DNA of 64,000 bases from Candidatus Woesearchaeota archaeon. Its GTDB lineage: Archaea > Nanobdellota > Nanobdellia > Woesearchaeales > GCA-2686295. The position numbers and the translations under genes were made by a program. The stretch spans positions 35,653 to 99,652 of the forward strand of contig JADHVI010000002.1 in the NCBI GenBank assembly GCA_016784125.1, read 5' to 3'. How positions within the stretch are numbered: the first letter of the stretch is position 1; each line of letters starts with the position of its first letter. This document shows, piece by piece, positions 18,822-46,906 of the stretch. The notes beneath the pieces are model-generated. The model did no database searches. It worked only from the letters and a program-made list of their open reading frames with translations, and was not told the origin of the DNA.

Positions 18822-19205
18822 ATGGTAACAAGAAATACATTTCAAAGACAAAAAATACTTGAATATCTTAGCAGTGTAAAAACTCATCCTACAGCAGAAA
18901 TGGTTTACAAAGAAGTCTTAAAAGACATTCCAACAATTACACTAGCAACTGTATACAGAAACCTAAACTTGTTAGCTAAACAAGGGGTAATACTCAGATT
19001 AGAAGTAAATAAAGAATATCACTATGATGGGTGTACTGAAGAACACCAACACGGTGTGTGTCAGAAATGCGGAAATATAATGGATTTTATGAACGAAGAA
19101 TTGTCACAATATGTCATAACACACTTGAAACAAAAAGATTTTAAACCTTCAACAGTCAACATAATCTTTCAAGGGACTTGCGAAAGTTGCAATGAGGTGC
19201 TTTAA
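18822..19205 (+). CDS. Fur-family metalloregulator (PerR/Fur-like)
   Basis: 127 aa with a winged-helix N-terminus (ATVYRNLNLLAKQG), an HHG-containing metal site (EEHQHGVCQKCG) and a second CxxC (CESC). Confidence 0.85.
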   Translation: MVTRNTFQRQKILEYLSSVKTHPTAEMVYKEVLKDIPTITLATVYRNLNLLAKQGVILRLEVNKEYHYDGCTEEHQHGVCQKCGNIMDFMNEELSQYVITHLKQKDFKPSTVNIIFQGTCESCNEVL

Positions 19206-19264
19206 TGGGATGTTGTAAAAAGAAAACAGACACTAAAACCAAGAAAAAGTCTTGTAAAGAATAA
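19205..19264 (+). CDS. candidate 19-aa Cys/Lys-rich micro-ORF (MGCCKKKTDTKTKKKSCKE)
   Basis: Its ATG overlaps the Fur stop codon (TAATG). It lies between the regulator and the peroxiredoxin gene. It is not in the ORF track because it is under 60 aa. Confidence 0.2.
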   Translation: MGCCKKKTDTKTKKKSCKE

Positions 19265-19329
19265 TGCTCAAATCTTTAAAAAAAAGTAATAGAACTAGCT
19301 CAAGCTATATTCTAAAGGAGGAAAACAAA

Positions 19330-19926
19330 ATGAAAAACGAAGAAAATTGTGATTGCTATGAAGTTGCAGACATAAATAAACCAGCGCCTGCATTCACAGC
19401 AGAAGCATTCCACAAAGAACAAATAAAAAAAATTAATTTAGAAGATTACAAAGGAAAATGGGTTGTACTATACTTCTACCCAGCAGACTTCACATTTATC
19501 TGCCCAACTGAATTAGGAGATATGGCAGATCACTACGAAGAATTAAAAAAGATGAATGTAGAAGTATTATCAGTATCAACCGATACAGTTTTTGTTCATA
19601 AAGCATGGCATGATGATTCAGAAACCATCAACAAAATCAAATTTCCAATGGTTGCAGACCCAACAGGATTTATCTGCAGAAGTTACGGAACAATGATTGA
19701 AGAAGAAGGATTATCTTTAAGAGGAACATTCATTATCAATCCTGAAGGAGTATTGAAAGCATTCGAAATACACGATAATTCAATCGGAAGATCAGCAAAG
19801 GAATTAATAAGAAAAATACAAGCAGCTCAATACGTCGAAACTCATGGCGGAGAAGTATGCCCTGCAAATTGGAAGCCAGGAGAAAAAACACTGAAACCAA
19901 GTCTCGAACTTGTTGGAAAAATATAG
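19330..19926 (+). CDS. ahpC: typical 2-Cys peroxiredoxin (AhpC/Prx1 type)
   Basis: FYPADFTFICPTE peroxidatic Cys motif and GEVCPANW resolving Cys motif. I chose the ATG at 19330 because AAGGAGG lies 8 nt upstream. Confidence 0.92.
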   Translation: MKNEENCDCYEVADINKPAPAFTAEAFHKEQIKKINLEDYKGKWVVLYFYPADFTFICPTELGDMADHYEELKKMNVEVLSVSTDTVFVHKAWHDDSETINKIKFPMVADPTGFICRSYGTMIEEEGLSLRGTFIINPEGVLKAFEIHDNSIGRSAKELIRKIQAAQYVETHGGEVCPANWKPGEKTLKPSLELVGKI

Positions 19927-20322
19927 GTGATACAAATGTTAGAACAAAATGAAATTTATAAATGTCCACTCTGTGGCAATGTAATTTCAGCACAAGAAGC
20001 TAATGGACCAATCCCAGTTTGTTGCGGACAAACCATGAAGAAGATGCCTGAAATAACAGTCAAAGAGGAAGGCACAGAAAAACACAAACCAGTTGTAAGC
20101 ATTAAAGGCGATAAAGTTATTGTCAATGTTGGCTCAATCGACCACCCAATGGACGAAGATCATTGGATTGAATTCATACAGATCTTAAAAGACGGTAAGG
20201 TTATTGCTGAGAAGAAGCTATATCCAGGTGATAAGCCTAGAGCAGAATTCTTAGTTGAAGATTCAAATAACATTAGATCAAGAGCATATTGCAACATGCA
20301 CGGTTTATGGACAAACGATTAA
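19927..20322 (+). CDS. dfx: desulfoferrodoxin (2Fe superoxide reductase)
   Basis: N-terminal desulforedoxin-type CPLCGN...CCG and a C-terminal SOR site (KHKPV...CNMHGLW). An alternative start is the ATG at 19936. Confidence 0.9.
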   Translation: MIQMLEQNEIYKCPLCGNVISAQEANGPIPVCCGQTMKKMPEITVKEEGTEKHKPVVSIKGDKVIVNVGSIDHPMDEDHWIEFIQILKDGKVIAEKKLYPGDKPRAEFLVEDSNNIRSRAYCNMHGLWTND

Positions 20323-20373
20323 TTTTTTATTTTATTTTAAAGATATTCTGGAGATAATAGAACAATTTCAGCA

Positions 20374-20730
20374 CTAAAAAGCACAATATTTACAATTAGT
20401 TTTCTTGCATGTTTCATTATTACCATGCCACTTCAAAGCCCAGATTTTCATGCTTTTTATAACACTAATAAAAGCTAATCCTTTATCTGTTAGAATGTAC
20501 TGACAAGTAATTGGAAATGCAGAAGTGTCTATATTCTTTTGAACAATATCTAGCTTCTCAAGTTCTTTTAGTCTTGAAGACAATAATTTTGGCGTAATAC
20601 CTGGAATTGAGCGTTTGAGTTCAGAGAATCTTTTGTTAGATGTTCCCTTATATAACTCTTGTAAAATCAACAAAGTCCATTTTTTCCCTATGAAATCAGC
20701 AACTTCATAGATAGTGCATTCTGGTTTCAT
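20374..20730 (-). CDS. HxlR-family winged-helix transcriptional regulator
   Basis: C-x-I-x-x-V-x-D-x-IGKKWTLLILQEL ... FSELKRSIPGITPKLLSSRLKELE is the canonical HxlR pattern. Confidence 0.85.
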   Translation of the reverse strand: MKPECTIYEVADFIGKKWTLLILQELYKGTSNKRFSELKRSIPGITPKLLSSRLKELEKLDIVQKNIDTSAFPITCQYILTDKGLAFISVIKSMKIWALKWHGNNETCKKTNCKYCAF

Positions 20731-20807: not shown

Positions 20808-21815
20808 TTAAGGCTTATTTTTCTTATGTCTCATCCATAAAAACATTCCCACTATTAAAATAAAAATCAAAAACAATATAATGCTCAAAAGATTCGCATA
20901 CTGCCAACCAATAAGTGCATTCTGAATTGAATAAAAGTATTGCTTTGTACCAAAGACATCCCATGAATTAAATACACTCGTACCCTTAAATATCAGAAGT
21001 ATAAAACCTATGAATAAGAACAAAATACCAGCTATAAAATTAGTTGAATGAATGTGATAAGTTTTATCATCTATCTTAAACTTAAACATTTTACCTTTAA
21101 TAAATCTGCTTTTAGACAAATCAAATTTATCATAAAGCATAGATAAGACAAATAAAGGCACAAGATTGCCAATAGAATAAAACAGCAGAAGCATAGCAGA
21201 ATAAAAAATATTATGAAGCAAAGCACCAATACCAAGAATTCCTGCAAGTATAGGACCTAAGCAAGCAGTCCAACCAATAGCAAAAAATACTCCGAATAAT
21301 AAAGTTCCAGGAATATCATTATTGAATTTTCTATTAGGCTTTATAAAAGAAGCAAAACCTTTGCCAGAGATTGAAACAAGACCCATCAGAATCAAAAAAA
21401 CTCCTGCAAGTGTTACTAACCAATTACTCTGTAATATTGAAAGTGATCGTTCACCAATAAAGCCCGCAATAATACCCATCACTACAAATACTGCTGCAAA
21501 GCCTACAAAAAATACGAGAGTCATCTTAGTGATATTCTTCTTCTCTTTGAATGTATAAGAGAAGTAAGCAGGTAAGAATGGTAAGATACAAGGAGATAAT
21601 ATACCTAAAATACCAGCAACAAAAGCTATGAAAAAAGAGATTTTGACAGAGAAGTCAAGGGTTTGTTGTTGATTTGATTCTATTATCTTCTGTAAACCAA
21701 TAGGTAATTCTGAAGAGTTATCTCCATCATGACTATGATTTTCATGTGCAGTTACAATCGAAGCAAAAGCTACTAAGAAAATCAATAATAACAAAACTGA
21801 AAATAATCTCTTCAT
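20808..21815 (-). CDS. ccdA: CcdA/DsbD-family transmembrane thiol:disulfide electron transporter with His-rich N-terminal segment and C-terminal TM extension
   Basis: A signal peptide is followed by AHENHSHDGDNSS. TM1 motif SPCILPFLPAYFSY and a second Cys helix (GWTACLGPILAG) are typical of CcdA. About 100 extra hydrophobic residues follow at the C-terminus. Confidence 0.8.
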   Translation of the reverse strand: MKRLFSVLLLLIFLVAFASIVTAHENHSHDGDNSSELPIGLQKIIESNQQQTLDFSVKISFFIAFVAGILGILSPCILPFLPAYFSYTFKEKKNITKMTLVFFVGFAAVFVVMGIIAGFIGERSLSILQSNWLVTLAGVFLILMGLVSISGKGFASFIKPNRKFNNDIPGTLLFGVFFAIGWTACLGPILAGILGIGALLHNIFYSAMLLLFYSIGNLVPLFVLSMLYDKFDLSKSRFIKGKMFKFKIDDKTYHIHSTNFIAGILFLFIGFILLIFKGTSVFNSWDVFGTKQYFYSIQNALIGWQYANLLSIILFLIFILIVGMFLWMRHKKNKP

Positions 21816-21820
21816 CTTAT

Positions 21821-22261
21821 TTACTCAACTATTAATTGTCCTCTCATACTACCATGACCAGCTCCACAAGGAACATTACAAAAAAATGTAAATGTTCCAG
21901 TTTTATCGGCTATAAAGTTTACATTCACTTCTTGTCCTGGTTCTAACATTTCATTCACACCGAATTGTGAAAGCATAAAGCCATGAGTTACATCGACACT
22001 CTTTATGTGTAATTCCACGTTATCACCAAGATTCACTCTAATCTCAGAAGGTTCAAAGTTCCAATTTCTGGCAATGAGATCAAATTCTCTCACTTCACCT
22101 GAGAACTTGTCATCTCCATTAGCAACATCAGTTGCTTGAGAGTCAATTGTTTGTTGATTACAAGCAACTAGCAATAATAGACTGGCAAGTAATAATATTA
22201 ATTTTTTGTTTTGCAATTTTGTCACCTCATTAAAAAAAATAAAAAAATTATGGTTGAACAA
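21821..22261 (-). CDS. stand-alone cupredoxin lipoprotein with CuA-type metal site
   Basis: Lipobox LLLVAC. The spacing H-x34-C-x3-C-x3-H-x2-M (THGF...FFCNVPCGAGHGSM), counted by hand, matches the binuclear CuA consensus. Confidence 0.75.
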   Translation of the reverse strand: MFNHNFFIFFNEVTKLQNKKLILLLASLLLLVACNQQTIDSQATDVANGDDKFSGEVREFDLIARNWNFEPSEIRVNLGDNVELHIKSVDVTHGFMLSQFGVNEMLEPGQEVNVNFIADKTGTFTFFCNVPCGAGHGSMRGQLIVE

Positions 22262-23399
22262 TTTCTCCTGTCGTCAAGTCCTTATATGGTTGTCTAGAAA
22301 CGTCCACTAACCTAAATACATAAGTACCATCAGTTTCTACTGTGCCAACATCCTTCCACGCGCTAACAATAACAGAATAAGCACCAACATCACCTTCCAA
22401 TATAATCGTAGGAACTTTTACAATGTTATATTTTTCAATTAATGCTTGACCTTCTGAAGTAGAAATATCAACTGATTTTTCCTCTCCGAAAACAGCACCC
22501 ATATTTACCAAAATTGGTTTATGAAAACTATTTGGATCATAACATTCAGTACATGTTTCATCTGTTATGACAGTCATTGAAAGCAAACCAACAACTCTAT
22601 TCTCGGTTAAATCAACATAAGGAGGAGTTAATAATCTAGTCACATAATAACCGTTTGATTCCACACTTCCCAGTTGATTCCAACTACCAGTAATACCTGA
22701 ACCATAAATTTCCAAATCACTTGACAATATTAAAGTTGGAATTGTTTGTATGTTATATTGAGATATTAACACTTGACCTTCAACACTGTTCATTTCAATC
22801 GTACGCTCATCAGTAATAACTACTCCAGATTGTTTCACACTATTTAACAAAACATCCAAATTATAACAATTGTCGCACGAAGAATCTTGAACTAATATTG
22901 TTAATACTCTTCCTTGTAATTCGCCAGAAACTGCATCAGTATATGGCGGTATGAGCGATCTAAAGACTAAAGCATCATCCTGAAGTTCCATATTTCTAAT
23001 AGAAGTCTTGTTAATTTGACCAAACAATAATACACTTGGAATCTTTTCTATTCCATATTCAGAAATCAGTTCTTTTGCTTCTTCTGAATCAAAGTTTAAA
23101 GATTGTTCTTGTGTTATATTTACGTGAGACTTCTTGATAGTATCAATAATTGGTTGAATATCAAAACAATCATTGCAACTATAATCCGTTATAGTTATCA
23201 TTTGTAGCTCAGCAGGTTTGGTTGCTTCTTTTACCACTGCAAGTCTCTCATCAAGCAAACTATCAAAAGAAGATGTTTGCACAATATTAAATATGGCTAC
23301 CAGTATCAAAACGATTCCCAATACTAAATAGTAATTTTTATGAGAGTTGACTTGTTTGCTGGTTTTTTTAGCGTTTTTCTTATTTTCCATTAACATCAC
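22248..23399 (-). CDS. membrane-anchored protein with three tandem thioredoxin-like CxxC repeats
   Basis: A basic N-tail and one TM are followed by three repeats of about 100 aa. Each repeat has ITD-x-x-CxxC(F/Y) (CNDC, CDNC, CTEC) and a downstream (I/V)P(S/T)(V/L/I)(L/I)L cis-Pro-like element. Confidence 0.7.
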   Translation of the reverse strand: MMLMENKKNAKKTSKQVNSHKNYYLVLGIVLILVAIFNIVQTSSFDSLLDERLAVVKEATKPAELQMITITDYSCNDCFDIQPIIDTIKKSHVNITQEQSLNFDSEEAKELISEYGIEKIPSVLLFGQINKTSIRNMELQDDALVFRSLIPPYTDAVSGELQGRVLTILVQDSSCDNCYNLDVLLNSVKQSGVVITDERTIEMNSVEGQVLISQYNIQTIPTLILSSDLEIYGSGITGSWNQLGSVESNGYYVTRLLTPPYVDLTENRVVGLLSMTVITDETCTECYDPNSFHKPILVNMGAVFGEEKSVDISTSEGQALIEKYNIVKVPTIILEGDVGAYSVIVSAWKDVGTVETDGTYVFRLVDVSRQPYKDLTTGEIVQP

Positions 23400-23422
23400 C
23401 TGGTTTAGTTAAAAAAATTATT

Positions 23423-23647
23423 TTAACAACCGCCCACCATTGTTGGTAGATTTTGTATGCTTGTTGGCAAAGCTGCGGGTTGACTACCGCTGCCTCCTGA
23501 TGATAACGGCGTTGTGCTAGTTGAAGAGCCAATTGATAGATCTTCATTAGCGATTTCTGATTTTAAATTGTTTAATTGAACTGCTTGAACGATTGACAGC
23601 ACCACAAGTACTACCATCACCACAGTTACTATTGTTGTTGATTTCAT
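23423..23647 (-). CDS. small membrane-anchored protein ending in NLPTMVGGC-COOH
   Basis: 74 aa with a GAGGTG SD 7 nt upstream. It has an N-terminal TM, a Ser/Thr/Gly linker, and a C-terminal tail shared with the 258-aa protein. Confidence 0.6.
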   Translation of the reverse strand: MKSTTIVTVVMVVLVVLSIVQAVQLNNLKSEIANEDLSIGSSTSTTPLSSGGSGSQPAALPTSIQNLPTMVGGC

Positions 23648-23661
23648 TTTTTTACACCTCG

Positions 23662-24105
23662 TTAGTATTCACATCCTGTAAGCTCAGCCAATCTTTCAAA
23701 AGATTGAACACGCTCATATTCCTGACCATCTATTACCCATGTTGGTCTTAGATTAAGGTCTTCTTCAATTTCATAATTAATATATTTGAATGATTTACCA
23801 AACATCTGTTTTTGACCATTCGTATATTGACACCAATCTTCACCATACATCACAGCGCCCTTCTCTGTTAAACATTTAGCAAAGTTATCCCAGTTACCAG
23901 GTTTTTGGCTTGAATAAACACCGAATATTACTAATAAAATAACTATTGCCAAAGAAACAAAACCAATTGTTTTATTTCTTCTACTTCTGGAAACTTTGTT
24001 AGTTTTGAAAAGTTTATCTCGCTGTTTCCTATTAGATTCCACCTGTTCACTGGCAGCCTTCTGATTCTCTAATCGACGTTTTCTTCTCTCATTTTTTGAC
24101 ACCAT
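23662..24105 (-). CDS. membrane-anchored thioredoxin-like protein with a single active-site Cys (VKOR-associated Trx-domain type)
   Basis: GAVMYGEDWCQYTNGQKQMFG ... RPTWVIDGQEY ... LAELTGC resembles the Trx-like domain fused to VKOR homologues (YGA-WC-x-HC-x-x-QK), but CxxC is reduced to C-Q-Y-T. Confidence 0.6.
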   Translation of the reverse strand: MVSKNERRKRRLENQKAASEQVESNRKQRDKLFKTNKVSRSRRNKTIGFVSLAIVILLVIFGVYSSQKPGNWDNFAKCLTEKGAVMYGEDWCQYTNGQKQMFGKSFKYINYEIEEDLNLRPTWVIDGQEYERVQSFERLAELTGCEY

Positions 24106-24125
24106 TTTTTATGCGTTTTATGCGT

Positions 24126-24299
24126 TTATCCGCAGCCCCCTCCGACGTAATCTGAACTTGGCGGTGGTATAGTGTTTGGGTCTCCCGAAGAACATCCCAC
24201 TACTACTAAGGCTAAGATTACTAACAAAGCCACTACAAATAACATTTTGTTTCTTGCGTATAACAATTTCAAAGAATTGTATATTACACCTATATTCAT
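24126..24299 (-). CDS. small anchored/lipoprotein-like protein ending in YVGGGCG-COOH (not in ORF track)
   Basis: 57 aa: MNIGVIYNSLKLLYARNKMLFVVALLVILALVVVGCSSGDPNTIPPPSSDYVGGGCG. Its ATG is 1 nt after the upstream stop, with GGAGG 8 nt upstream. An alternative start at 24245 gives a 39-aa lipobox (VVGC) form. Confidence 0.45.
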   Translation of the reverse strand: MNIGVIYNSLKLLYARNKMLFVVALLVILALVVVGCSSGDPNTIPPPSSDYVGGGCG

Positions 24300-24300
24300 T

Positions 24301-25077
24301 TTAACAACCTCCTACCATTCCTGGTAAATTATCCAAAGCAGATGTATCTCCACCCGCAACAGTCATTCCTAACTCAATCATGTTCTTTGGAAAGAATAGT
24401 GTCTTCCACTTTATTACTTCTCGCAATATTTCTCCATCATTGTAATCAGTGTAAGCTGTTAAGTAAAGAGTCACTGATAGAAGAGCAGGGTTATGTTGAC
24501 AACCACATTTAGAGTTGCCGTTCTTGTCAGCGCCTGCAGGGCCAATTCCACAACAATATTCACATGAAACTCCATATGGATTTGAAGCGAGATTTATGTA
24601 TCTCTGGAATGCTTCTGGATTACTTTGTTTTACTTCTGATTTCAATCCTTCAAACATCCTTGCCAGAGTTGCTAATGAAGTAACTGGATCATCAAAGTTT
24701 ACTCCTAACGCATCTCCATACTCAGGTGTTCCTGTTGGAAATAAAATAGCCATTGCATCTTCTGCAGTGTATATATTCTCTACAGGAAAAACTGCCGCAA
24801 TAGCATGACCTGTTGATGTTATCTTTGATAAGTCAAGATCTAAAAGATCAGTTCCGCCAGCATTAATTGATCTTGCACTAACAGAATTTAAATCACCAGA
24901 GATACTGTTTATTTGTGTTTGATTAAAAATCATTACTACAAGTACTAAGACAAACAAACCAATGATTGGCATTGTAAGTGCGTTCTCTGTCTTTTTCGTT
25001 TTGGCTTTTGTTGTTTTAGTTGTCGTTTTAGCTTTAGTTTTCGTTTCCGCTTTTATTTTTGTTTTTCCTTTTTCCAT
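24301..25077 (-). CDS. membrane-anchored Cys-rich protein ending in NLPGMVGGC-COOH
   Basis: 258 aa with a Lys/Thr-rich cytoplasmic tail, one TM, the Cys cluster SCEYCCGIGPAGADKNGNSKCGCQHNP, and the same C-terminal tail as the 74-aa protein. Confidence 0.65.
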   Translation of the reverse strand: MEKGKTKIKAETKTKAKTTTKTTKAKTKKTENALTMPIIGLFVLVLVVMIFNQTQINSISGDLNSVSARSINAGGTDLLDLDLSKITSTGHAIAAVFPVENIYTAEDAMAILFPTGTPEYGDALGVNFDDPVTSLATLARMFEGLKSEVKQSNPEAFQRYINLASNPYGVSCEYCCGIGPAGADKNGNSKCGCQHNPALLSVTLYLTAYTDYNDGEILREVIKWKTLFFPKNMIELGMTVAGGDTSALDNLPGMVGGC

Positions 25078-25196
25078 TTTTTTAAATCCTCTACCCGTTT
25101 TAAAAATGTCTTAAATAGTTAAAAAGTCATCTTATATTTAAAAAGAATGCAATATTAGTGAAAAAATAGGGAAAATTTATAAATCACTTTTAGGTT

Positions 25197-26963
25197 TTGG
25201 AACTTCAGGGGGAAAAAATAGTGAAAATTAATCGACCATTTGTAATCCTATTAATATCATTAATAATGTTAGTTATAATAGGCGTAGTTGTATTTACTAA
25301 TGTTCTCTCATTCAGAAATATAGAATCAGTTCTAATAAATCAGTTAAAAGAAAATCAGTTGACTCAAACAGAGTTTGCAGCTTCTCAAATAGAAGATTAT
25401 GTACTCCAAGTAAAAAACGAGTTGATAACACTAAGCAAGTTTCCAGACATAGATTCCTTCAATATGAATGAATGCAATGGCGATATGTCCATAGTTCATG
25501 GGGATATAGAAGGAAAAATAAATAATCTATTAAGAGTTGAAAAAGATGGAACCGTAATTGAATGTTCATCACCAATTTATTCTAATTTTGTCGGTTTGAA
25601 CATACAAAATAAGGATTATTTTCGGATCCCTAAAGAAACAAATGAGCCGTTCATAGATAGTTCTATTAGACAAGGAAACATGAGACAGATAATCATCGCA
25701 GCACCTCTTTTTGAAACAACAGAGTATACTCCTTATCCAAATTTTCTTGGTCGGTTTGAAGGTTTACTGTTGAGTATCATCGAAGTTAATACACTTTACA
25801 ATATGTACATACACCCAATAGCAGATCCTGAAAAAAGCTCTTTCTTATTAATCAGTTTGGAGACTGGCGAGACTATTCTTAAAAGTAATAATATGGCAGA
25901 ATACTCTGAGATCAAGAATGATATTCCAATAAAAAGCAGACAGTTGAGTGCAATCAGTAATTTTAATGGTTTCGGAGAAACAATCTTTACTTCATCAGAT
26001 ATGATTCTAGGCTCTGAAACTTGGAGATTAATTGTTTTAACACCTCTGGAAAATATAGAGGAAAATGTGGGGAGTGTTCAAAAAAGACATTTTTTCATTC
26101 TAGGATTTGTAATAGTTGTAATCATTGCATTGTTCTTTTTTATGATAACACTTTACAAGTCAAAAGAAAAAGTACAACTAAAATTAGATAGAGCCAATGT
26201 AACCTTAGAACAGTTAGGCATCAATATTGAAACTGAAACAGACAAATACAATCAAGCAGATATAACTCTTGAACCAAAAAAAATATACTTAATAAAAGAA
26301 GACGACGAAAATCATGCACATGAATTGTTTATAGATTCTCTTAATAAGGGATTTGCAGGTCTTGGAATTGTAAGAGAAAATCCACGCGAGCTTAGAAAAA
26401 AGTACAATTTACAAAAAACTTCTTTCATATGGATGACAGATACTAAAACTGTAGATATTCCTACAGAAATGAAGATAGATAACTTGTACAGGTTAATCTC
26501 AGAGTTTGTCAAGAAGAGCAAAAAGTGTGTCATTCTAATAGATAGACTTGATTATATTTTATCCGAGAACAGCTTCGAAGATGTCATAAAGAGAATTCAT
26601 TCTTTGAAAGATTTGGCATTATCAAATAATTGCATAATAATAATCTCTGTTAATCCAGAACTGGTTCCTGATGTTCAGCTTAAAGCAGTAGAAACTGAGA
26701 CAATCGATTTGTATGGAAAACATCTAAGTGATAAAGTGAATCTTTCTGAGATGGAGTTTGAAATGCTAAAACTTGTGAATGAATATAATACTACAAATAA
26801 GCTAATATCTTACAAAGACATTACAAGTAAATTCAATATTACAAAGCCAACAACAAGAGCAAAGATTAACAACTTGCAAAATCTTAGTTTAATACAAGTA
26901 GAACAGAGAGGAAGGTTTAAATCTCTTAAAATCACGTCGACAGGAAGAAGAATTATAGGTTAA
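25197..26963 (+). CDS. membrane-bound one-component sensor/regulator: extracytoplasmic sensor domain - TM - DUF835 - winged helix
   Basis: Two TM segments flank an external domain of about 260 aa. The DUF835-like core is GLGIVRENPRELRKKY...FIWMTD...CVILIDRLDYIL. A C-terminal wHTH follows (ISYKDITSKFNITKPTTRAKINNLQNLSLI). An alternative start is the GTG at 25221, 8 nt after GGGGG. Confidence 0.7.
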   Translation: MELQGEKIVKINRPFVILLISLIMLVIIGVVVFTNVLSFRNIESVLINQLKENQLTQTEFAASQIEDYVLQVKNELITLSKFPDIDSFNMNECNGDMSIVHGDIEGKINNLLRVEKDGTVIECSSPIYSNFVGLNIQNKDYFRIPKETNEPFIDSSIRQGNMRQIIIAAPLFETTEYTPYPNFLGRFEGLLLSIIEVNTLYNMYIHPIADPEKSSFLLISLETGETILKSNNMAEYSEIKNDIPIKSRQLSAISNFNGFGETIFTSSDMILGSETWRLIVLTPLENIEENVGSVQKRHFFILGFVIVVIIALFFFMITLYKSKEKVQLKLDRANVTLEQLGINIETETDKYNQADITLEPKKIYLIKEDDENHAHELFIDSLNKGFAGLGIVRENPRELRKKYNLQKTSFIWMTDTKTVDIPTEMKIDNLYRLISEFVKKSKKCVILIDRLDYILSENSFEDVIKRIHSLKDLALSNNCIIIISVNPELVPDVQLKAVETETIDLYGKHLSDKVNLSEMEFEMLKLVNEYNTTNKLISYKDITSKFNITKPTTRAKINNLQNLSLIQVEQRGRFKSLKITSTGRRIIG

Positions 26964-27041: not shown

Positions 27042-27431
27042 ATGTATGGATATAATAAACAAACAAACGCTTCATTTGAAGAAACAATTGAAAAAACAAA
27101 AGAAGAATTACAAAAAGAAGGTTTTGGTGTTTTAACTGAAATCGATGTCAAAGCAACGTTTAAAAAAAAACTAGGTGTTGAGTTTGACAAATACATCATA
27201 TTAGGTGCTTGCAACCCACCATTTGCATACAAAGCTTTACAGGTAGAAAAGGAGATAGGTTTGATGTTACCTTGCAATGTAATCGTGTATGAACAAGAAG
27301 GCAAAACAGTTGTCTCAACAATATTACCTACCGTTGCTATGAGCATGGTTGGGAATGAAAATCTGAAAGCCATAGCAGAAGAGATTGAAGAAAAACTGAA
27401 GAGAGTTGTAGATAATATATCTGAGAATTAA
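27042..27431 (+). CDS. DUF302-domain protein
   Basis: FEETIEKTKEELQKEGFGVLTEIDV...YIILGACNPPFAYKAL...LPCNVIVYE matches the DUF302 pattern. Confidence 0.85.
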   Translation: MYGYNKQTNASFEETIEKTKEELQKEGFGVLTEIDVKATFKKKLGVEFDKYIILGACNPPFAYKALQVEKEIGLMLPCNVIVYEQEGKTVVSTILPTVAMSMVGNENLKAIAEEIEEKLKRVVDNISEN

Positions 27432-27443
27432 TGGAGGTAAAAA

Positions 27444-27617
27444 ATGGTATTTGGTTTATTTAAAAAAACAGATCCCATATGTGGGATGAAGGAAGAAAAA
27501 GGTAAAGGTATTACAAAACACGGACAATGGTTTTGTAATGAAAGCTGCTTGAGAAAATATGAAGCAGGAGAAGAAAAAGATGAGAAGAAACATGAAGGAT
27601 CATGTTGTTGTCATTAG
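27444..27617 (+). CDS. YHS/TRASH-type metal-binding mini-protein with CCCH C-terminus (not in ORF track)
   Basis: 57 aa: MVFGLFKKTDPICGMKEEKGKGITKHGQWFCNESCLRKYEAGEEKDEKKHEGSCCCH. DP-x-CGM...FC-x-x-x-C is the YHS/TRASH signature. GGAGGT lies 5 nt upstream. Confidence 0.65.
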   Translation: MVFGLFKKTDPICGMKEEKGKGITKHGQWFCNESCLRKYEAGEEKDEKKHEGSCCCH

Positions 27618-27626
27618 GAGATACAC

Positions 27627-28049
27627 ATGTTTAACAATGTAAAAGAACGGATTATAGGAACAACAGGGAGTATTTCCGGATTTGCAAGTGTACTTGGTTC
27701 TTGGCAAATATGTCACAATGTTTGTCTGGGATTAATAGCTTTGTTAAGTGTTATAGGAATAACTGTGACAGGTATGCCTCTAATGTTTCTGACAAAGCTA
27801 GCAATTCCTCTTTGGACAGCGGCAGTTATACTATTAGGAATAACTACTTGGTTTTTCGTTAAGAAGAAGTGTATTTCTGGAAAACTCATAATGATAAACT
27901 CTGGCTTGATAATTGCAGGCATTCCTTTTCAAGCACTTCAAAGATTCTCAATAATTTTCTGGATTGTTGGTGGAATCATAGCTGCAACAGGAATTGGTTT
28001 TTTTATCAAGGATAAGATTCAAAAACAAAAGATGAAGGTGAAAAAATGA
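27627..28049 (+). CDS. four-TM membrane protein with intramembrane CxxxC (CHNVC)
   Basis: 140 aa, hydrophobic, with the Cys pair at the start of TM1. It overlaps the next gene by 4 nt. Confidence 0.6.
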   Translation: MFNNVKERIIGTTGSISGFASVLGSWQICHNVCLGLIALLSVIGITVTGMPLMFLTKLAIPLWTAAVILLGITTWFFVKKKCISGKLIMINSGLIIAGIPFQALQRFSIIFWIVGGIIAATGIGFFIKDKIQKQKMKVKK

Positions 28050-28516
28050 ATAAAAACGTTGAGAAATATTTTTTATATGGATTTCTTGTTTTAGCAGCTT
28101 TCGGTTTAATATTGGCTTTCACTGGTTTTACGTTTGATAGTGTAAGCGCAGAAAAAACAGTTGATAACAAACAGAACATAGAAACGAGTGAAGAATCATT
28201 TAAGTTAATTTCTTCGGGAAGTACAGATTCTGGTGACGTTTCAGTTGATTTGAAACCTCACAAAGTAGTTAATGGAAAATTAGAAGTGGATATTTCTGTA
28301 AATACTCATAGTGTTAGTTTAGAAGGATTTGATTTGAAAGAGTTAACAACTTTGGAGTTTAATGGTAAATTCATCAAACCAACTTTAGCACCATCATTAA
28401 CAGGACATCATAATTCTGGAACATTAACTTTTGATGTTAATGAAAATATTGATAGTTTTACAATAAAAATAATTGGAATTCCAAAAGTTGAGGAAAGAAT
28501 TTTTGAGTGGAGGTAA
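28046..28516 (+). CDS. secreted/anchored beta-rich protein of copper island
   Basis: N-terminal TM. VDISVNTHSVSLEGFDL...LTGHHNSGTLTFDV resembles proteins seen next to metal-resistance genes. No family name is assigned with confidence. Confidence 0.55.
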   Translation: MNKNVEKYFLYGFLVLAAFGLILAFTGFTFDSVSAEKTVDNKQNIETSEESFKLISSGSTDSGDVSVDLKPHKVVNGKLEVDISVNTHSVSLEGFDLKELTTLEFNGKFIKPTLAPSLTGHHNSGTLTFDVNENIDSFTIKIIGIPKVEERIFEWR

Positions 28517-28518
28517 AA

Positions 28519-29001
28519 ATGAAAAAAAATAGTTTAATTATAATTAGTTTGTTGCTTATCAGCATATTTTTGATTTCAGCTTGCAGCCCAAACAACAGTA
28601 AATATTTTGATAATGAGGGAAATGGTGAATTTTCTGACACAAAAATATCTGCTTACAAATCACGATATTGTGGTTGTTGTGTAGGTTATGTTGCTGAATT
28701 GGAGAAATATAGCTTCGACATTGAAACTATTGAAATGGAGGATCTGACATCTATAAAGAATCAACATAATATTCCTCAAAGCCTACAGAGTTGTCATACA
28801 TCTGTTGTTGGAGAATATTTCATTGAAGGACATGTTCCTATAGAAGCAGTTAGAAAGCTTCTTGAAGAAAAACCAGACATAGATGGAATTGGATTAGCCG
28901 GTATGCCTTCTGGAACTCCTGGTATGCCTGGTGCAAAAAGAGAAGCATGGCACATATATGCTCTGAAGGATGGAATACAGTCAGAATTTATGACTATATG
29001 A
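28519..29001 (+). CDS. copG: DUF411/CopG-family periplasmic metal-binding protein
   Basis: Lipobox LISAC, the CGCCxxY motif (YCGCCVGYV), CHTSVVGEYFIEGHVP and GMPSGTPGMPG. I chose the ATG at 28519, 5 nt after GGAGG. Confidence 0.85.
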   Translation: MKKNSLIIISLLLISIFLISACSPNNSKYFDNEGNGEFSDTKISAYKSRYCGCCVGYVAELEKYSFDIETIEMEDLTSIKNQHNIPQSLQSCHTSVVGEYFIEGHVPIEAVRKLLEEKPDIDGIGLAGMPSGTPGMPGAKREAWHIYALKDGIQSEFMTI

Positions 29002-29011
29002 GGTGATAAAT

Positions 29012-29503
29012 ATGAAAAGAAAAAATTATCATGAACAAACAGTATTAGGAATGGGAATTGCACTGATAGTAATAGCAGTTTTGGTAGTTACAATAATTCC
29101 GGGTCGTTATATGTATGGACACCATATGAGTATGGACGGTCACATGAGTAATCACATGGATAATGATCATATGAATATGGATGAGAAAATGAGCTCATTC
29201 ATGTTCCTAAGAGATGATATGAGACATGAATTGATAACAGATGGCAATTACAAATGTTGTTTAGAAACCTCTTGCACTTACTGTCTTGCAAAACATGGCG
29301 AATGTGATTGTTTAGAAGATATTTATAATGGAAAACATCCTTGTGGTGAATGCATTGGTGAAATATTGGAAGGACATGGCAATATTTTTGTAGCAAAATA
29401 TTTTGCAACTGCCATAGCAGAGAAAGTTGGAGAAAATCATTTAGATTCTCTCAAACAAATCATCTCTGAAAAGTATAATATAACTGTAGAAGAACAGGTT
29501 TAG
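29012..29503 (+). CDS. membrane-anchored His/Met-rich, Cys-rich putative copper-binding protein
   Basis: YGHHMSMDGHMSNHMDNDHMNMDEKM is followed by KCCLETSCTYCLAKHGECDCLEDIYNGKHPCGECIGE. I chose the ATG at 29012, 6 nt after GAGGTG. Confidence 0.65.
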   Translation: MKRKNYHEQTVLGMGIALIVIAVLVVTIIPGRYMYGHHMSMDGHMSNHMDNDHMNMDEKMSSFMFLRDDMRHELITDGNYKCCLETSCTYCLAKHGECDCLEDIYNGKHPCGECIGEILEGHGNIFVAKYFATAIAEKVGENHLDSLKQIISEKYNITVEEQV

Positions 29504-29507
29504 AAAA

Positions 29508-29960
29508 ATGATGAAAAAATACTTGGTGCTAATAATTTTTTTTGTTTTGTTATTAAACGCATGTTCTGAACAAACAGAAGAAACAACAACGCAAGAAAAT
29601 GAAACAAAACTTGAAATGGTTGATTCAAATTATATCTTGGAAAGTGTAGATAATTCGAATGTGGTTTTACTAGATGTAAGAACAGAAAAAGAATTTAGTG
29701 AAGGACATATTCCAAATGCTGTCATGGTAGACAGGTACTCTGCACTAAATGAAAATGGTGATCTTAAAAGTGTTGGAGAACTAGAATTTTTATTTAGCAA
29801 TGTGGATAAAAACAAAGAAATCATTGTTTACTGTCGATCTGGAAGAAGAGCAGGTCTTGCTGCGGAAGCTATGACAAAAAAACTTGGATTTGAAAATGTC
29901 AAGATTTACCAAGGTTCTATGAATGATTGGAATAGTAAGAACTTGACTATAGAACAATGA
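29508..29960 (+). CDS. rhodanese-domain lipoprotein (sulfurtransferase)
   Basis: Lipobox LLNAC, GHIPNAV, and the active-site loop YCRSGRRAG. Confidence 0.85.
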
Positions 29961-32173
29961 AAGAAAATAGCAAAACAACTATACAAATAGAGGGCATGAG
30001 TTGTGCTAGTTGTGTTGCAACTATAGAACATGCATTAAAAAAAAAGAAGGGCGTGAATAATGCTTCTGTAAATCTGGCAACAAAGAAATCAACTATTGAG
30101 TTTAATTCAATTCAAATTTCTGAAGAAGAACTCAAAAAAACCATTGAAAATGCTGGTTACAAAATTTTCTTAAAGTCAGAAAATAAAGATGAAGAGAAAA
30201 AAGTACGTGACAAAGAAACAAGAAATCTCAAATACAGAGTAATTGCATCAATTATTTTAGCTCTACCACTACTATATTTTGCCATGGGACCTCACATAGG
30301 TTTATCCATTAGTTCTTTTATTACAAATCACATGGCTTTAATACAATTCTTGATAACCACACCCATAATAATAGTTGGTTATGAATTCTATTATAAGGGT
30401 TTTAAATCAGTTATAAAGGCCAAAACTGCTAATATGGACACTTTGGTTGCTATTGGTACTGGTTCTGCGTATATCTACAGTATTTTTGCAGCTATTAATG
30501 GTAATGTTGAACACTTATACTTCGAAGTTGCTGGAATATTAATCGCATTCATTCTTCTTGGACGTTATTTAGAAGCAAAAGCAAAAGGAAAAACAGGTGA
30601 AGCAATAAAGAAACTAATGGGTTTATCAGCAAAAACTGCGCTTGTGATAAGAAATGGAAAAGAGATGGAAGTCTTAATTGATGAAGTCATTGTAGGAGAC
30701 ATCGTTATTGTTAAACCAGGACAAAAAATACCTGTTGATGGAATAATAACAAAGGGATATTCAAGTGTTGATGAAAGCATGATTAGTGGTGAAAGTATGC
30801 CAGTTGAAAAAACCATTGGAAATAAAGTTATAGGTGCAAGCATGAATAAAACTGGCAGCTTCAATTTCAAAGCTACAAAAATTGGTTCTGAAACTGTTTT
30901 GGCTCAGATAATTAAGATGGTCGAAGATGCGCAAGGAAGCAAAGCACCAATTCAGAAAATTGCAGATGTTGTTGCATCATATTTTGTTCCAGTAGTTGTA
31001 AGCATCGCAATTATTTCCGGTATAGCATGGTATTTCTTTGGAGGGTTTGCATTCGCCTTAAGTATATTTGTTGCAGTACTAATAATTGCTTGTCCTTGCG
31101 CTCTAGGACTGGCGACGCCCACTGCCATAATGGTTGGTACTGGAAAAGGTGCAGAAAATGGTATATTGTTCAAAAACGCCCAAAGTCTTCAGTTGGCACA
31201 AAAAATAAATACTGTTGTATTCGACAAAACAGGCACATTAACTAAAGGCAAACCTCAAGTCACAGATATAATAAGTTTTTCAAAATACAAAGATAGAGAT
31301 TTGTTATTATACGCTGCAGTTGCAGAAAAAAATTCAGAACATCCATTGGGTGAAGCAATAGTTAACTATGCAAAAGAAAAAAAATTGTCTTTAAAGAATC
31401 CTGAAAAGTTCAATTCAATAACTGGAAAAGGAATTGAAGTCCAATACAATGGTCTCCTTATTGATTTAGGAAATCGAAAGTTAATGGAAGAAAAAAATAT
31501 TAGTTACAACAATGCCTTAAAAGATCTCAGAACACTTGAAACCGAGGGAAAAACGGTTATGTTAATAGCCATAAACAAAGAATTAGCAGGCATAGTCGTG
31601 GTTGCAGATACATTAAAAGAACATTCAATAGAAGCCATAATAGCATTAAAGAGTATGGGTGTTGAATCTATAATGATAACAGGAGATAATAAAAGAACAG
31701 CAGAAGCAATTGCAAAACAATTAGGAATAAAAAGATTGCTTGCAGAAGTACTGCCACAAGATAAAGCCATTAATGTAAAAATATTACAAGAAGAAGGGAA
31801 AAAAGTGGCGATGGTTGGTGATGGAATAAACGACGCACCTGCACTTACACAAGCAGATATTGGAATTGCAATAGGAAGCGGCACAGATGTAGCCATTGAA
31901 TCAGGAGATATAGTTTTGATAAAAGAAGATTTACGTGATGTGGTGGTAGCAATGGACTTGTCAAGATACACCATGAAAAAAATTAAGCAAAATCTATTCT
32001 GGGCATTCTTCTATAATAGCATTGGTATTCCTTTAGCAGCAGGTCTTTTGTATCCTTTCTCAGGTTTTTTGTTAAGTCCAATCATAGCTGGAGCAGCAAT
32101 GGCATTTAGTAGTGTAAGTGTAGTTACAAATTCATTGTCCATGAAAAGATATAAAGCAAAAATGAGTTTATAA
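29957..32173 (+). CDS. copA: copper-translocating P1B-type ATPase
   Basis: N-terminal HMA domain GMSCASC, TGES, the transmembrane CPC motif ([11 protein letters not shown]), DKTGTLT and GDGINDAP. Confidence 0.96.
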
Positions 32174-43695: not shown

Positions 43696-45462
43696 TTAGC
43701 AAGATCCGCCTGCTGAAGGTGCTTGTGTTGGCGCTGGAGCTATTGGAATTACTTCACCACATTCTTCTGGTGCTTCATCAAATTCCAAACACAAAGCATT
43801 CTTGATACTTTCTGCATCTCTGCCCGTCATAAAGGTCTTTCCGTTTACTAAGAAAGTTGGTGAGACTTGCGGTGGTATTAAAGTTATTTGTCCATTTTGA
43901 GGATATTCTCTTACGAGTCCTTGAACCAACCTGTCTTCTTCTGCAGCAATTGTTAATTTATCATTTGCTTCGCAGTTCCTGATAACTTCTTTATCTATTC
44001 CAACTGCATCTGCTGCGGTTTCCCAACAAGTATCCGCATTTCTTGAGTCACACATCTCATTCACTTTTACTGTGAATTTAAAGAAAGATTCATATCCAAG
44101 TTCTCTTAAAGCACATAGCTCTCTTACTCCTTGGTTTCCTTCTTGTTCACCGTGCAAAGATCCAACTGTGTCGCCTGCAACATTTATGATGTAATGTGGT
44201 ACTATGTCAACTTTATCTCCTAATACTTGGTATACACCATATGCTGCTTCATCTGCAGGGTTTCCATATGGACAGAATGACATCACAAAGTAATCCAATC
44301 TTGGCTTGGCTGGTTTCTCATTAAAGCCAAGAAATGCTAGATTATCATCAACATATCCTAATATTTGTTCTTGTTGTGCTTCGAGTTGTCTTTGCATTTC
44401 TGCTTCATATGCTACTCTTGCTTCATCATCTATAAACCAGTTTGCACCGATTGCTTCATCTCTCAATCTGAATCCATTTCCTGATTCCATAAATGAACTT
44501 CTAAGCTCTGGATTGTTTTCCCAAGTAAACGTTTCTTCTAAGGATTTTTCAAAGATGAATGCTGGCAAGAATACAAGTCCATTTTCTTCCACTAATGCTT
44601 GTCCTTCTGCATCATCAACATCTACTTTTCTGATGTTTGCTCCTGGAAAAAACTGTGTTGTTACCGATTCAATATTTGCAGTATTGCAGGTTGAACAATC
44701 ATTATCTGTTAGAACTACAACTTCCAATTTTACTGATTCAAAACATGCTTCATGTTCACCACCAAGTGCTTCGCAAATCGCTGTTATGTAGCTTATCTCT
44801 AATCTTCCACCATTGTATGACTTCCCATTCAAATATACTGTTGGACTTGCGCTAGCACCTACTTTATTTGTTTCTACTTCACATGCTTTTAATAGTTCAA
44901 CACCATCATTTACAACGCAACTAGCAATTGCTTCTGTATCGATTGATAATTGATTTGCGCAGTTAGCATATTGTGCTTGTCCTGCTTGGTAATTTTGATT
45001 GAAGCATAACAGGTAATCATAGTGTTTCTCAGGAAAGAGTTTCTCAACACATAACTGCCTCATATTCTCATCTACTTCTGGCTGTCCATGTAAGCTTTGA
45101 AAATTATCTCCTTGTGAATTAACGATATAGTTAATGTTTAAATCAACATCACCATCAAATCTTTGTACCGCTTTTACGAGTTGTGTTTCAGCTTGTGTTC
45201 CTGGCGGACATTGACTCATTACGTATAAGTCAAATACAGCTTCACCTGCTGGTGCGCTTTCGTTCAATGCAAAAACTGATACTAATATAACTGCTATTAA
45301 CACTACAATCAAAGCTGCCAAACTTTTTTTGCCTAAAGGTTGACATCCGCATGAATCATCTTTGCAAACTTCTCCTACTTTATTCTTAATAGGTTTTTTA
45401 GAACTAGGCTTCTTTTTTGTCACTTTTTTTTTAGTTAATTTTTTTGCTGGCATAAATACCAC
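43696..45462 (-). CDS. membrane-anchored multi-domain thiol-redox-like protein (two GILT/DsbA-like modules + one Trx-like CxxC module) ending in GGSC-COOH
   Basis: Lys-rich tail with CKDDSCGC, then one TM. Two similar modules follow (YVMSQCPPG...SLHGQPEVDEN...LC and YFVMSFCPYG...SLHGEQEGNQG...LC). The central VVVLTDNDCSTCN...EGQALVEENGL module resembles the repeats of the 383-aa protein. Confidence 0.65.
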   Translation of the reverse strand: MVFMPAKKLTKKKVTKKKPSSKKPIKNKVGEVCKDDSCGCQPLGKKSLAALIVVLIAVILVSVFALNESAPAGEAVFDLYVMSQCPPGTQAETQLVKAVQRFDGDVDLNINYIVNSQGDNFQSLHGQPEVDENMRQLCVEKLFPEKHYDYLLCFNQNYQAGQAQYANCANQLSIDTEAIASCVVNDGVELLKACEVETNKVGASASPTVYLNGKSYNGGRLEISYITAICEALGGEHEACFESVKLEVVVLTDNDCSTCNTANIESVTTQFFPGANIRKVDVDDAEGQALVEENGLVFLPAFIFEKSLEETFTWENNPELRSSFMESGNGFRLRDEAIGANWFIDDEARVAYEAEMQRQLEAQQEQILGYVDDNLAFLGFNEKPAKPRLDYFVMSFCPYGNPADEAAYGVYQVLGDKVDIVPHYIINVAGDTVGSLHGEQEGNQGVRELCALRELGYESFFKFTVKVNEMCDSRNADTCWETAADAVGIDKEVIRNCEANDKLTIAAEEDRLVQGLVREYPQNGQITLIPPQVSPTFLVNGKTFMTGRDAESIKNALCLEFDEAPEECGEVIPIAPAPTQAPSAGGSC

Positions 45463-46788: not shown

Positions 46789-46906
46789 TGCGCCGGCTGG
46801 GATTCGAACCCAGATAAGCGGCTTGGAAGGCCGCTGTCATTTACAGCACGCTGTGCCGAAACCAGATGATCCTGATTCTAGCGTGTAGCCGTTAGACCAC
46901 CGGCGC
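46789..46906 (-). tRNA. tRNA-Gly(UCC) with about 46-nt intron in the D-loop region
   Basis: Hand-folded. Acceptor GCGCCGG/CCGGCGC plus discriminator A. T arm CTGGG-TTCGAAT-CCCAG. Anticodon arm GCGGC-CTTCCAA-GCCGC. D arm GTC...GAC split by an insert at about 46840-46885 carrying a CACGCT/AGCGTG helix. Confidence 0.8.

Follow-up and report, generated by a model that had tools for sequence, protein, structure and literature searches.

Here we describe seven tightly packed genes, g1–g7, on the minus strand of a 64 kb stretch of Woesearchaeota DNA (the whole stretch is called the window below), four of which, g1-g4-g5-g7, form a core that is conserved in the DPANN archaea. Two products of this core, the large Cys-rich protein g1 and the small protein g4, end in the same motif, LPxMVGGC-COOH, and are encoded together with a single-chain triple thioredoxin (g5) and a CcdA-type membrane thiol-disulfide transporter (g7). 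By sequence comparison g7, g5, g6 and g3 can be placed in known superfamilies, and g1, g2 and g4 in no described family. In its mode of action we take the module to be a CcdA-thioredoxin pathway that supplies reducing power outside the membrane and is tied to copper and thiol stress; pathways of this kind are known, but a large part of this one is unexplained. More specifically we suggest, with slightly less than even credence, that the module is a stress-inducible relay, in which CcdA would feed the triple thioredoxin and this in turn terminal-Cys arms that handle Cu(I) or thiol stress outside the membrane.

Gene order and conservation of the core

An earlier reading of this DNA, referred to here as the original prediction, had described seven closely spaced minus-strand open reading frames (ORFs), and its coordinates and spacings agree exactly with ours. 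Taking the longest ORFs from g1 to g7, the spacings are 1, 20, 14, 23, −14 and 5 nt; on identical public contigs, gene callers shortened g5 to 380 aa and g6 to 131 aa by choosing starts further downstream, leaving gaps of approx. 31–32 nt, and the operon is tightly packed under either choice. An N-terminal hydrophobic segment was found in all seven products, in keeping with the prediction that each is membrane-anchored, carries a lipobox or spans the membrane several times. This segment is preceded by 12 Lys/Arg residues in g1, 16 in g3 and five in g5, lipoboxes are present in g2 (VVGC) and g6 (LVAC), and g7 is polytopic with many hydrophobic segments. The window itself has a G+C content of approx. 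33% and is identical with a contig of a DPANN-type metagenome-assembled genome (MAG; GCA_014384455.1).

GTDB species genomes were scanned with a g1 sequence pattern, which returned 135 g1-encoding stretches, and the best 80 of the 135 were analysed. These loci were read as mechanically called six-frame ORFs and searched by phmmer with the window proteins; the denominators given below are the loci with enough flanking DNA, 31 of which had full flanks. The 80 loci are titled Woesearchaeota, Nanoarchaeota, Micrarchaeota, Aenigmatarchaeota, Iainarchaeota and Altiarchaeota, with a few MAGs titled ‘Methanosarcinales’ or ‘Patescibacteria’. These data clearly show a recurrent gene order, with g4 following g1 in 68 of 77 loci, g5 present in 51 of 62 and g7 in 37 of 47, and recurrence in 80 independent DPANN loci puts the arrangement far beyond chance. 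The genes g1-g4-g5-g7 make up the core, and the g2-g3 pair and the cupredoxin g6 are optional, g3 being detected in 13 and g2 in nine of the 31 full-flank loci. The original prediction had named two outcomes that would tell against it, namely genes that never co-occur elsewhere and small ORFs that are not conserved; neither is what we observe, because the synteny recurs in DPANN loci and the small ORFs are kept, g4 above all.

The order is kept around P0154, a remote homologue that scores 147 bits with the g1 profile: a BlaI-like gene and an M48 protease gene (divergent) are followed by g1, a g4-like gene, a triple thioredoxin and Lgt, in this order. In some genomes the module, or g1, is present twice: L006 and L046 come from the same MAG (CALCXY01), and in L028 (10001–14537) a second g1 lies behind a rhodanese gene. 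Many module-bearing contigs are public under the titles ‘uncultured Methanosarcinales archaeon’ and ‘Patescibacteria group bacterium’ (e.g. L010, L013, L016, L054 and L079), titles that are probably placeholder names or binning artefacts.

g1, g4 and their common C-terminal motif

The first gene, g1 (24301–25077, minus strand), encodes a 258-aa protein with a type-II anchor, consisting of a basic N-terminal tail and one transmembrane (TM) helix, followed by a predicted all-α ectodomain and a C-terminal arm ending in LPGMVGGC-COOH. Profile searches gave no Pfam or NCBIfam match for it. We found 955 homologues with 55–76% identity, which form 277 clusters at 50% identity, and all of the named ones are from DPANN archaea (Woesearchaeota, Nanoarchaeota and others). 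The stretches S171-C-E-Y-C-C-G177 and C191-G-C-Q-H-N-P197 are invariant in the alignment, as are further positions, and they contain a Cys5His centre (C172, C175, C176, C191, C193 and H195). Distant members keep PxGxPxYGxxLGVSFDDP, SCEYCC, CGCxH and WKxLFFP, and most of those inspected also keep the MVGGC end. An AlphaFold2 model of g1 was all-α with a predicted local distance difference test score (pLDDT) of 77; 97 residues exceeded pLDDT 90 and most of the ectodomain was confident, with lower scores in the tail and in the Cys-rich loop, as is to be expected of parts that move or bind metal. Comparison of this fold with the PDB by Foldseek gave no match (best E 3.4), and a profile search against PDB sequences returned noise only (best E 0.67). 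We rejected heme binding by g1 because it has no CxxCH motif, and an Erv/ALR-type sulfhydryl oxidase on the grounds of a mismatched fold and the implausibility of an exported FAD enzyme.

Fusions of g1 to other domains were also observed. At three archaeal loci (L067, 9323–10726; L077, 3669–5027; L080, 9320–10714) it is joined to an N-terminal multi-TM domain of approx. 230 aa with GCPSCG in a helix, and in a Desulfobacterales MAG (DRHF01000376.1; L088, 8001–9416) to a periplasmic SlyD-like FKBP, with the end ..MPNMVGGC and with no g4, thioredoxin or CcdA gene nearby.

The small protein g4 (23423–23647, minus strand) has 74 aa, in which an N-terminal TM or signal helix is joined by a Ser/Gly/Thr linker to the end ..SIQNLPTMVGGC-COOH. 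Members of its family have 65–92 aa and share a conserved N-terminal helix (..VLVLISVVQAFQLNxLK..), the Ser/Gly/Thr linker and the end ..LPSSI[KQ][ND]LPxMVGGC; judged by sequence, g4 is in effect g1 minus its domain. Across the 80 loci the g1 tail reads xVGGC in 81 of 81 copies and exactly LPGMVGGC in 67 of these, and the g4 tail reads LPxMVGGC or a close variant in 75 of 75 copies, with VGGC invariant. One extra g4 missed by phmmer was recovered by the regular-expression scan of tails alone, and such a scan of approx. 1.2 Mb of flanking DNA found an LPxMVGGC-type end in no further family. Within the window, GGC-type ORF ends are confined to g1 (LPGMVGGC), g4 (LPTMVGGC) and g2 (VGGGCG). The Cys tails of the two small proteins had been pointed out in the original prediction and are verified in the sequence, but the end common to g1 and g4, the most striking feature of the operon, had been passed over. 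Neither g2 nor g4 matched Pfam or NCBIfam above the curated cut-offs. A search of the literature for MVGGC returned only irrelevant papers, no mention of g1 or g4 was found in the searchable literature, and a paper on DPANN protein families mentions none of thioredoxin, copper, cysteine or Lgt. We regard the invariant LPxMVGGC-COOH arm, its stand-alone copy in a tethered mini-protein and the single-chain triple thioredoxin as new elements, none of which we found in the searchable literature.

In the most specific version of our proposal, which we regard as rather unlikely, LPxMVGGC-COOH would be a new kind of protein-borne thiol cofactor, and g4 a ribosomally made, membrane-tethered swinging-arm Cys that is recharged by CcdA through the triple thioredoxin and services the Cys5His centre of g1. 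In MerA, thioredoxin reductase and the R1 protein of ribonucleotide reductase, a flexible C-terminal Cys tail shuttles soft metal or reducing equivalents between a buried Cys centre and either a partner or the solvent. The arm proposed here would resemble these in being a flexible, Cys-bearing C-terminal tail. However, theirs carry two redox-active residues and belong to cytoplasmic flavoenzymes, whereas here a single terminal Cys would act outside the cell and the tail is also encoded as the separate tethered mini-protein g4. If the swinging-arm proposal is true, small-genome DPANN archaea would own a self-contained extracellular thiol/Cu(I) relay that replaces low-molecular-weight thiols or periplasmic chaperones.

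Other roles for the tail were also considered. A ubiquitin-like or ThiS-type GG sulfur carrier was ruled out, as it would need cytoplasmic ATP-dependent activation, and so was a sortase LPXTG signal, as the motif is followed by neither a TM helix nor a basic tail. LPXTG, PGF-CTERM and similar invariant termini of other proteins act as sorting signals, and by this analogy LPxMVGGC might be a C-terminal processing or anchoring signal, its terminal Cys being lipidated or covalently attached by Lgt, with thioredoxin and CcdA only keeping the acceptor thiol free. The VGGC of both tails does satisfy the lipobox pattern [LVI][ASTVIG][GAS]C (consensus from PMC12462473; G at −2 is our own extension), and a bona fide Lgt is encoded beside g5 or g7 in 11 of the 47 loci with enough downstream DNA. 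As the lipobox of an N-terminal signal peptide, however, the tail fails, with the motif lying at the extreme C-terminus behind a polar Ser/Gly/Thr linker and with no hydrophobic h-region ahead of it, which Lgt substrates require. We consider this reading improbable: N-terminal lipoproteins (g2, g6, CopG and rhodanese) already account for a nearby Lgt, the window has none, the invariant eight-residue motif is far stricter than any lipobox, and three thioredoxin domains plus CcdA would be heavy machinery for one thiol.

The Lgt proteins themselves are full-length and of bacterial type (PF01790, 232.7 bits). The 11 loci are L010, L016, L019, L038, L046, L058, L063, L066, L075, L083 and L084, to which the separately fetched L086 can be added; the gene often lies between g5 and g7 or just past g7, and in L086 directly behind a g5-like gene. 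No Lgt gene was found in the 64 kb window. According to a 2025 paper no archaeal Lgt homologues are known (PMC12462473), and the Lgt genes in these DPANN operons bear on the current view of archaea as organisms without Lgt.

The predicted thioredoxin pathway and its optional partners

The last gene of the operon, g7 (20808–21815, minus strand), encodes a 335-aa CcdA-type thiol-disulfide transporter with multiple TM segments, which matches DsbD_TM (PF02683) with 51.8 bits against a cut-off of 27.1. Its transfer Cys residues lie in SPC76ILP and TAC185LGP, and both C76 and C185 are kept in 46 of 46 orthologues. The original prediction had described a CcdA-like protein with a His-rich head; the family membership stands, but the head is kept in approx. 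3 of the 46 orthologues, is lineage-specific and was ruled out as a functional feature. Given the co-encoded g5, g7 would pass electrons from cytoplasmic thioredoxin to a thioredoxin-fold acceptor on the outside.

The candidate acceptor, g5 (22248–23399, minus strand, 383 aa), consists of a membrane anchor and three thioredoxin-fold repeats with the active sites CNDC, CDNC and CTEC, and scores 35.2 bits with Pfam Thioredoxin (PF00085; cut-off 23.5). Exactly three CxxC sites are present in 49 of 49 orthologues, the six Cys and the cis-Pro residues P121, P221 and P330 are invariant, and the dipeptides between the Cys are mostly acidic or polar. No match of g5 was found with the Redoxin, AhpC-TSA, TlpA or ResA models (PF08534, PF00578, NF047696 and NF002854), the sole match to the Redoxin/AhpC-TSA-type models being a cytoplasmic peroxiredoxin (19264–19926), and none of g1–g5 matched DSBA or Thioredoxin_4 in Pfam. 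With CcdA and a triple thioredoxin identified and g1, g2 and g4 in no family, the broad claim of an extracytoplasmic thiol module built from partly unrecognizable parts holds good.

Between these two genes lies g6 (21821–22261, minus strand, 146 aa), a stand-alone, single-domain CuA-type cupredoxin lipoprotein that is an optional accessory of the module. It matches both Cupredoxin_1 (PF13473, 43.3 bits) and COX2 (PF00116, 27.8 bits) above their cut-offs and aligns with the CuA domains of NosZ (PDB 5i5i) and COX2 across the full ligand set; the ligands H93, C128, C132, H136 and M139 (H...CxxxCxxxHxxM) are kept in 23–24 of 24 orthologues. Searching by phmmer with the window protein detected g6 in 11 of the 31 full-flank loci. 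A motif search placed a CuA-motif ORF near g1 in 20 of the 80 loci overall and in 10 of the 31, lying within the operon in 6 of the 31, and L012 encodes a 489-aa g5–cupredoxin fusion. The protein is not a COX2 or NosZ proper: it has 131–146 aa and no propeller domain, and neither COX1 nor NosZ is among the ten largest other ORFs of the window (these include PFOR, PPDK, enolase and SMC), in agreement with the absence of an oxidase subunit I noted in the original prediction. The window further encodes Pta/AckA and a NiFe hydrogenase of group-3 type.

DPANN ‘nosZ-like’ proteins that have CuA without CuZ, from MAGs without respiratory chains, are already known, and no oxidase or NosZ partner was reported in such comparable MAGs (PMC10936187). 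Like those proteins, g6 has CxxxCxxxH and no CuZ, is extracytoplasmic by prediction and would belong to a host without a respiratory chain. The difference is that the published work takes the protein as a possible relative of N2O reductase, and the thiol operon and the g1 and g4 families do not figure in it. Our relay model would move the ‘nosZ-like’ protein into a copper/thiol context, away from N2O reductase.

The original prediction had placed maturation of this CuA centre at the heart of the operon, such that CcdA would feed a TlpA-like thioredoxin and g1–g4 would substitute for Sco and PCuAC in reducing and metallating g6. The complete and conserved ligand set, the fusion in L012, the CuA-motif ORFs near g1 at a frequency well above chance and the TlpA, ScoI and PCuAC logic established in Bradyrhizobium (PMC7558416) are all consistent with this. 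Nevertheless, the cupredoxin is within the operon in only 6 of the 31 loci, while g1-g4-g5-g7 persists; none of the seven products matches Sco1/SenC (PF02630) or PCuAC (PF04314) at E values up to 0.1; and a superphylum-wide module under inducible sensor control would be unexpected for an optional 15 kDa protein. We therefore regard CuA maturation as a very improbable core function. The likeness to the CcdA/TlpA, ScoI and PCuAC line of Bradyrhizobium and Thermus is that a membrane-anchored thioredoxin reduces the CuA Cys pair on the outer side of the membrane there, and that a CuA cupredoxin is in the operon here (PMC7558416), whereas our operon has no Sco or PCuAC homologue, its cupredoxin is optional and the window holds no oxidase or NosZ partner.

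The second optional element is a gene pair. g2 (24126–24299, minus strand) encodes a 57-aa lipoprotein with the end ..YVGGGCG, and its orthologues end in PPSGP[IV]GGGC(G)(G). g3 (23662–24105, minus strand, 147 aa) is a thioredoxin-like domain on a membrane anchor; it is of the VKOR-associated type, and its active site, WCQYT, is monothiol. Orthologues of g3 all have WCxYT, while paralogues elsewhere in related loci have WCxHC; g2 stands ahead of 13 of 22 CxxT-type g3 genes and of no CxxC paralogue. The description of g3 as a ‘single-Cys’ protein applies to its CxxT active site but not to the whole protein, which has three Cys. Compared with the thioredoxin-like domain fused to VKOR in Synechococcus (PDB 4nv6 and 3kp9), g3 gives E values of 2e-9 to 3e-9 and aligns including the preceding TM linker, so the sequence match to this class is clear, but it has CxxT in place of CxxC, is not joined to a VKOR and is paired with a GGGC-tailed lipoprotein. 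No VKOR match was found among the seven operon products and the 13 neighbouring products scanned.

Copper genes, regulation and the proposed relay

Divergent from the g1 operon, beyond a sensor gene, are eight plus-strand genes that form a copper island (27042..32173). In order, they encode a DUF302 protein, a 57-aa YHS-like protein ending in CCCH, a 140-aa CxxC TM protein, a 156-aa Ig-like protein, DUF411/CopG (CGCC), a 166-aa His/Met/Cys-rich protein, a rhodanese lipoprotein (CRSGRR) and a CPC-type CopA P-type ATPase. Genes of this island recur beside g1 or within its operon at other loci. CopA was found within 10 kb of g1 in 10 of the 31 full-flank loci, where we estimate that chance would give approx. 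1 of 31 if a genome is approx. 1 Mb long and holds one or two CopA genes. At least one gene of the copper island was found at this distance in 17 of the 31. DUF411/CopG even occurs inside the operon: L055, L059 and L080 have it between g1 and g4, L010 has it between g3 and g4, and in L077 it is the gene next after g1. The complete genome AR15 (L052) has the order DUF411-g1-g4-rhodanese-DUF302 with no thioredoxin or CcdA gene within 10 kb. The copper link is real and rests on gene neighbourhood; this part of the original prediction is supported, by way of CopA and CopG and not by CuA maturation as the core.

Half of the copper-island products have no family assignment. The 156-aa Ig-like protein has an invariant HH pair, and a PCuAC-, CopC- or YcnI-like fold was not recovered for it, the predicted structure being a generic Ig-like sandwich (best E 0.03). 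The 140-aa CxxC protein has 409 unnamed DPANN homologues and no Pfam domain; its supposed homology with the GCPxCG domain fused to g1 was dropped after a BLAST E value of 0.01 and a negative phmmer search.

The gene between the two operons (25197..26963, plus strand) encodes a sensor-regulator with a dCache ectodomain, a TM helix, a DUF835 domain (88 bits) and a winged helix; DUF835 is an inactivated KaiC-like (iKaiC) domain (PMC5847659). Such a sensor is found within 10 kb of g1 in 13 of the 31 full-flank loci, mostly divergent and directly upstream, and is a candidate regulator of both flanking operons. Where it is absent, the same slot often holds a BlaI/CopY-family repressor (17 loci) and an M48/M56 BlaR1-like protease with a Cys-rich helix (15 loci), a pair that is divergent upstream of g1 in, for example, L046, L058, L066, L083 and L086 and suggests that the module is switched by proteolytic signalling. 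The interval 25078..25196, from which g1 and the sensor gene diverge, is their promoter region; ahead of g1 it has a TATA-like, A/T-rich box, TTTAAATA, and it also contains a single TAGTGAAA. This latter element has nine copies in the 64 kb window, four of which flank the sensor gene (25156, 25219, 26968 and 26979); it is common to the promoter regions of g1 and of the copper operon, and the closest relative, L009, has similar TTTCACT elements. We regard it as a weak candidate for a shared operator that would co-regulate the two operons. A scan for sigma-70 promoters gave hits at chance level and is unsuited to archaea.

On the other side of the operon an oxidative-stress cluster (18822–20730) follows directly, encoding a Fur-family regulator, an AhpC-type peroxiredoxin, desulfoferrodoxin and an HxlR-type regulator. 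The last of these (20374..20730, minus strand; Pfam HxlR 77.9 bits) begins 77 nt past g7 and has its own TATA-like box; an HxlR gene is near g1 in only 2 of the 31 loci and is local to the lineage of the window. Further away, a second extracytoplasmic thiol gene pair is formed by a gene for a 588-aa protein with a GILT (lysosomal thiol reductase-like) domain (43696–45462, minus strand) and an adjoining gene for a DsbA-like protein (45487–46413, minus strand) that is homologous with the DsbA proteins encoded near g1 in other loci. A tRNA call at 46789–46849 (minus strand) is marginal, with 29.1 bits in Rfam against a threshold of 29, and ARAGORN reports no tRNA in the window.

In the relay that we propose, the family membership of g7 and g5 suggests that CcdA would carry reducing equivalents from the cytoplasm across the membrane and that the membrane-anchored triple thioredoxin would take them up. 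g5 would then hold the single-Cys arms, that is the LPxMVGGC-COOH ends of g1 and g4, in the reduced state and, in some lineages, would do so for the GGGC end of g2 along with the monothiol protein g3. Once reduced, the flexible Met/Cys arms (Met-x-x-x-Cys) would join the Cys5His centre of g1 in capturing Cu(I), either exported by CopA or arriving from outside, and in passing it on at the cell surface, where they would probably also quench oxidants. The whole would act beside CopA efflux and CopG under the control of the membrane sensor-regulator, with g6 as an accessory client or copper sink whose Cys pair may also be kept reduced by g5. A role for CopG in copper resistance under anaerobic conditions has been described (PMC7558416).

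Several observations weigh against this proposal. g1 shows no likeness to a known copper protein by either Foldseek or profile comparison with the PDB, and its tail is disordered in the AlphaFold2 model (pLDDT below 50). The TAGTGAAA-type motif is not generally enriched across the loci. No recognizable copper gene lies within 10 kb of g1 in 14 of the 31 full-flank loci, and therefore the module may be a general thiol system that has been recruited to copper islands in some lineages. In addition, the peroxiredoxin, desulfoferrodoxin, Fur and HxlR neighbours fit oxidative stress equally well.

These last points also favour a possible, though in our view doubtful, alternative, in which the operon is a general extracytoplasmic thiol-repair or antioxidant module like CcdA-Etrx-MsrAB or CcdA-ResA/StoA of Gram-positive bacteria. 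g1 would then be a novel thiol-dependent reductase or isomerase, with its C-terminal Cys as a resolving or shuttle residue recycled by g5, g4 would be a free-standing copy of the arm, and the copper genes would adjoin only because copper causes disulfide stress. The recurrence of DsbA-like genes in related loci agrees with this, as do two active-site features typical of reductases and mixed-disulfide-trapping enzymes, namely acidic dipeptides within the CxxC of g5 and CxxT in g3. On the other hand, g1 matches no reductase family or fold, and CopG inside the operon and the g1-g4 of AR15, set among copper-type genes without thioredoxin or CcdA, would be hard to explain by repair. The bacterial fusion of g1 with the foldase FKBP might be taken in support of repair, but it does not discriminate, because SlyD-type FKBPs are also metallochaperones.

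The closest functional parallels to the proposed relay are bacterial. In the Scs system the DsbD-like ScsB reduces ScsC, which sequesters copper (PMC11634996), and the Pseudomonas dsbDEG operon is copper-induced (bioRxiv 10.1101/2020.08.17.255257). As in Scs (ScsABCD) and DsbDEG, where reduced thiols sequester Cu(I), a DsbD-superfamily reductase with a thioredoxin-fold partner is linked here to copper defence (PMC11634996; bioRxiv 10.1101/2020.08.17.255257). Unlike these systems, the DPANN module is archaeal, its reductase is a minimal CcdA and not ScsB or DsbD, and its thioredoxin partner, which is not DsbA- or DsbG-like, carries three CxxC domains in a single chain. The partners show no homology with ScsC, ScsA or CueP, no CueP is present, and the clients g1, g4 and g2 have no Scs homologues and carry a terminal single-Cys arm. 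By analogy, therefore, the module appears to work like Scs without being a member of it.

The DPANN archaea are ultra-small, mostly uncultured and surface-attached, and their envelope biology is largely unknown. The module is a conserved, lineage-wide cluster in these organisms, with 955 g1 homologues and 135 species-level genomes, and its invariant eight-residue terminal motif offers a handle for proteomics and biochemistry. Cu2O-coated Pacearchaeota cells have been found in sulfide chimneys (PMC9209642), which we cite as an ecological setting and nothing more. If the relay model is true, it would be relevant to such cells and would show how surface Cys are kept reduced, and Cu(I) is dealt with, in cells that have neither a periplasm nor small-molecule thiols.

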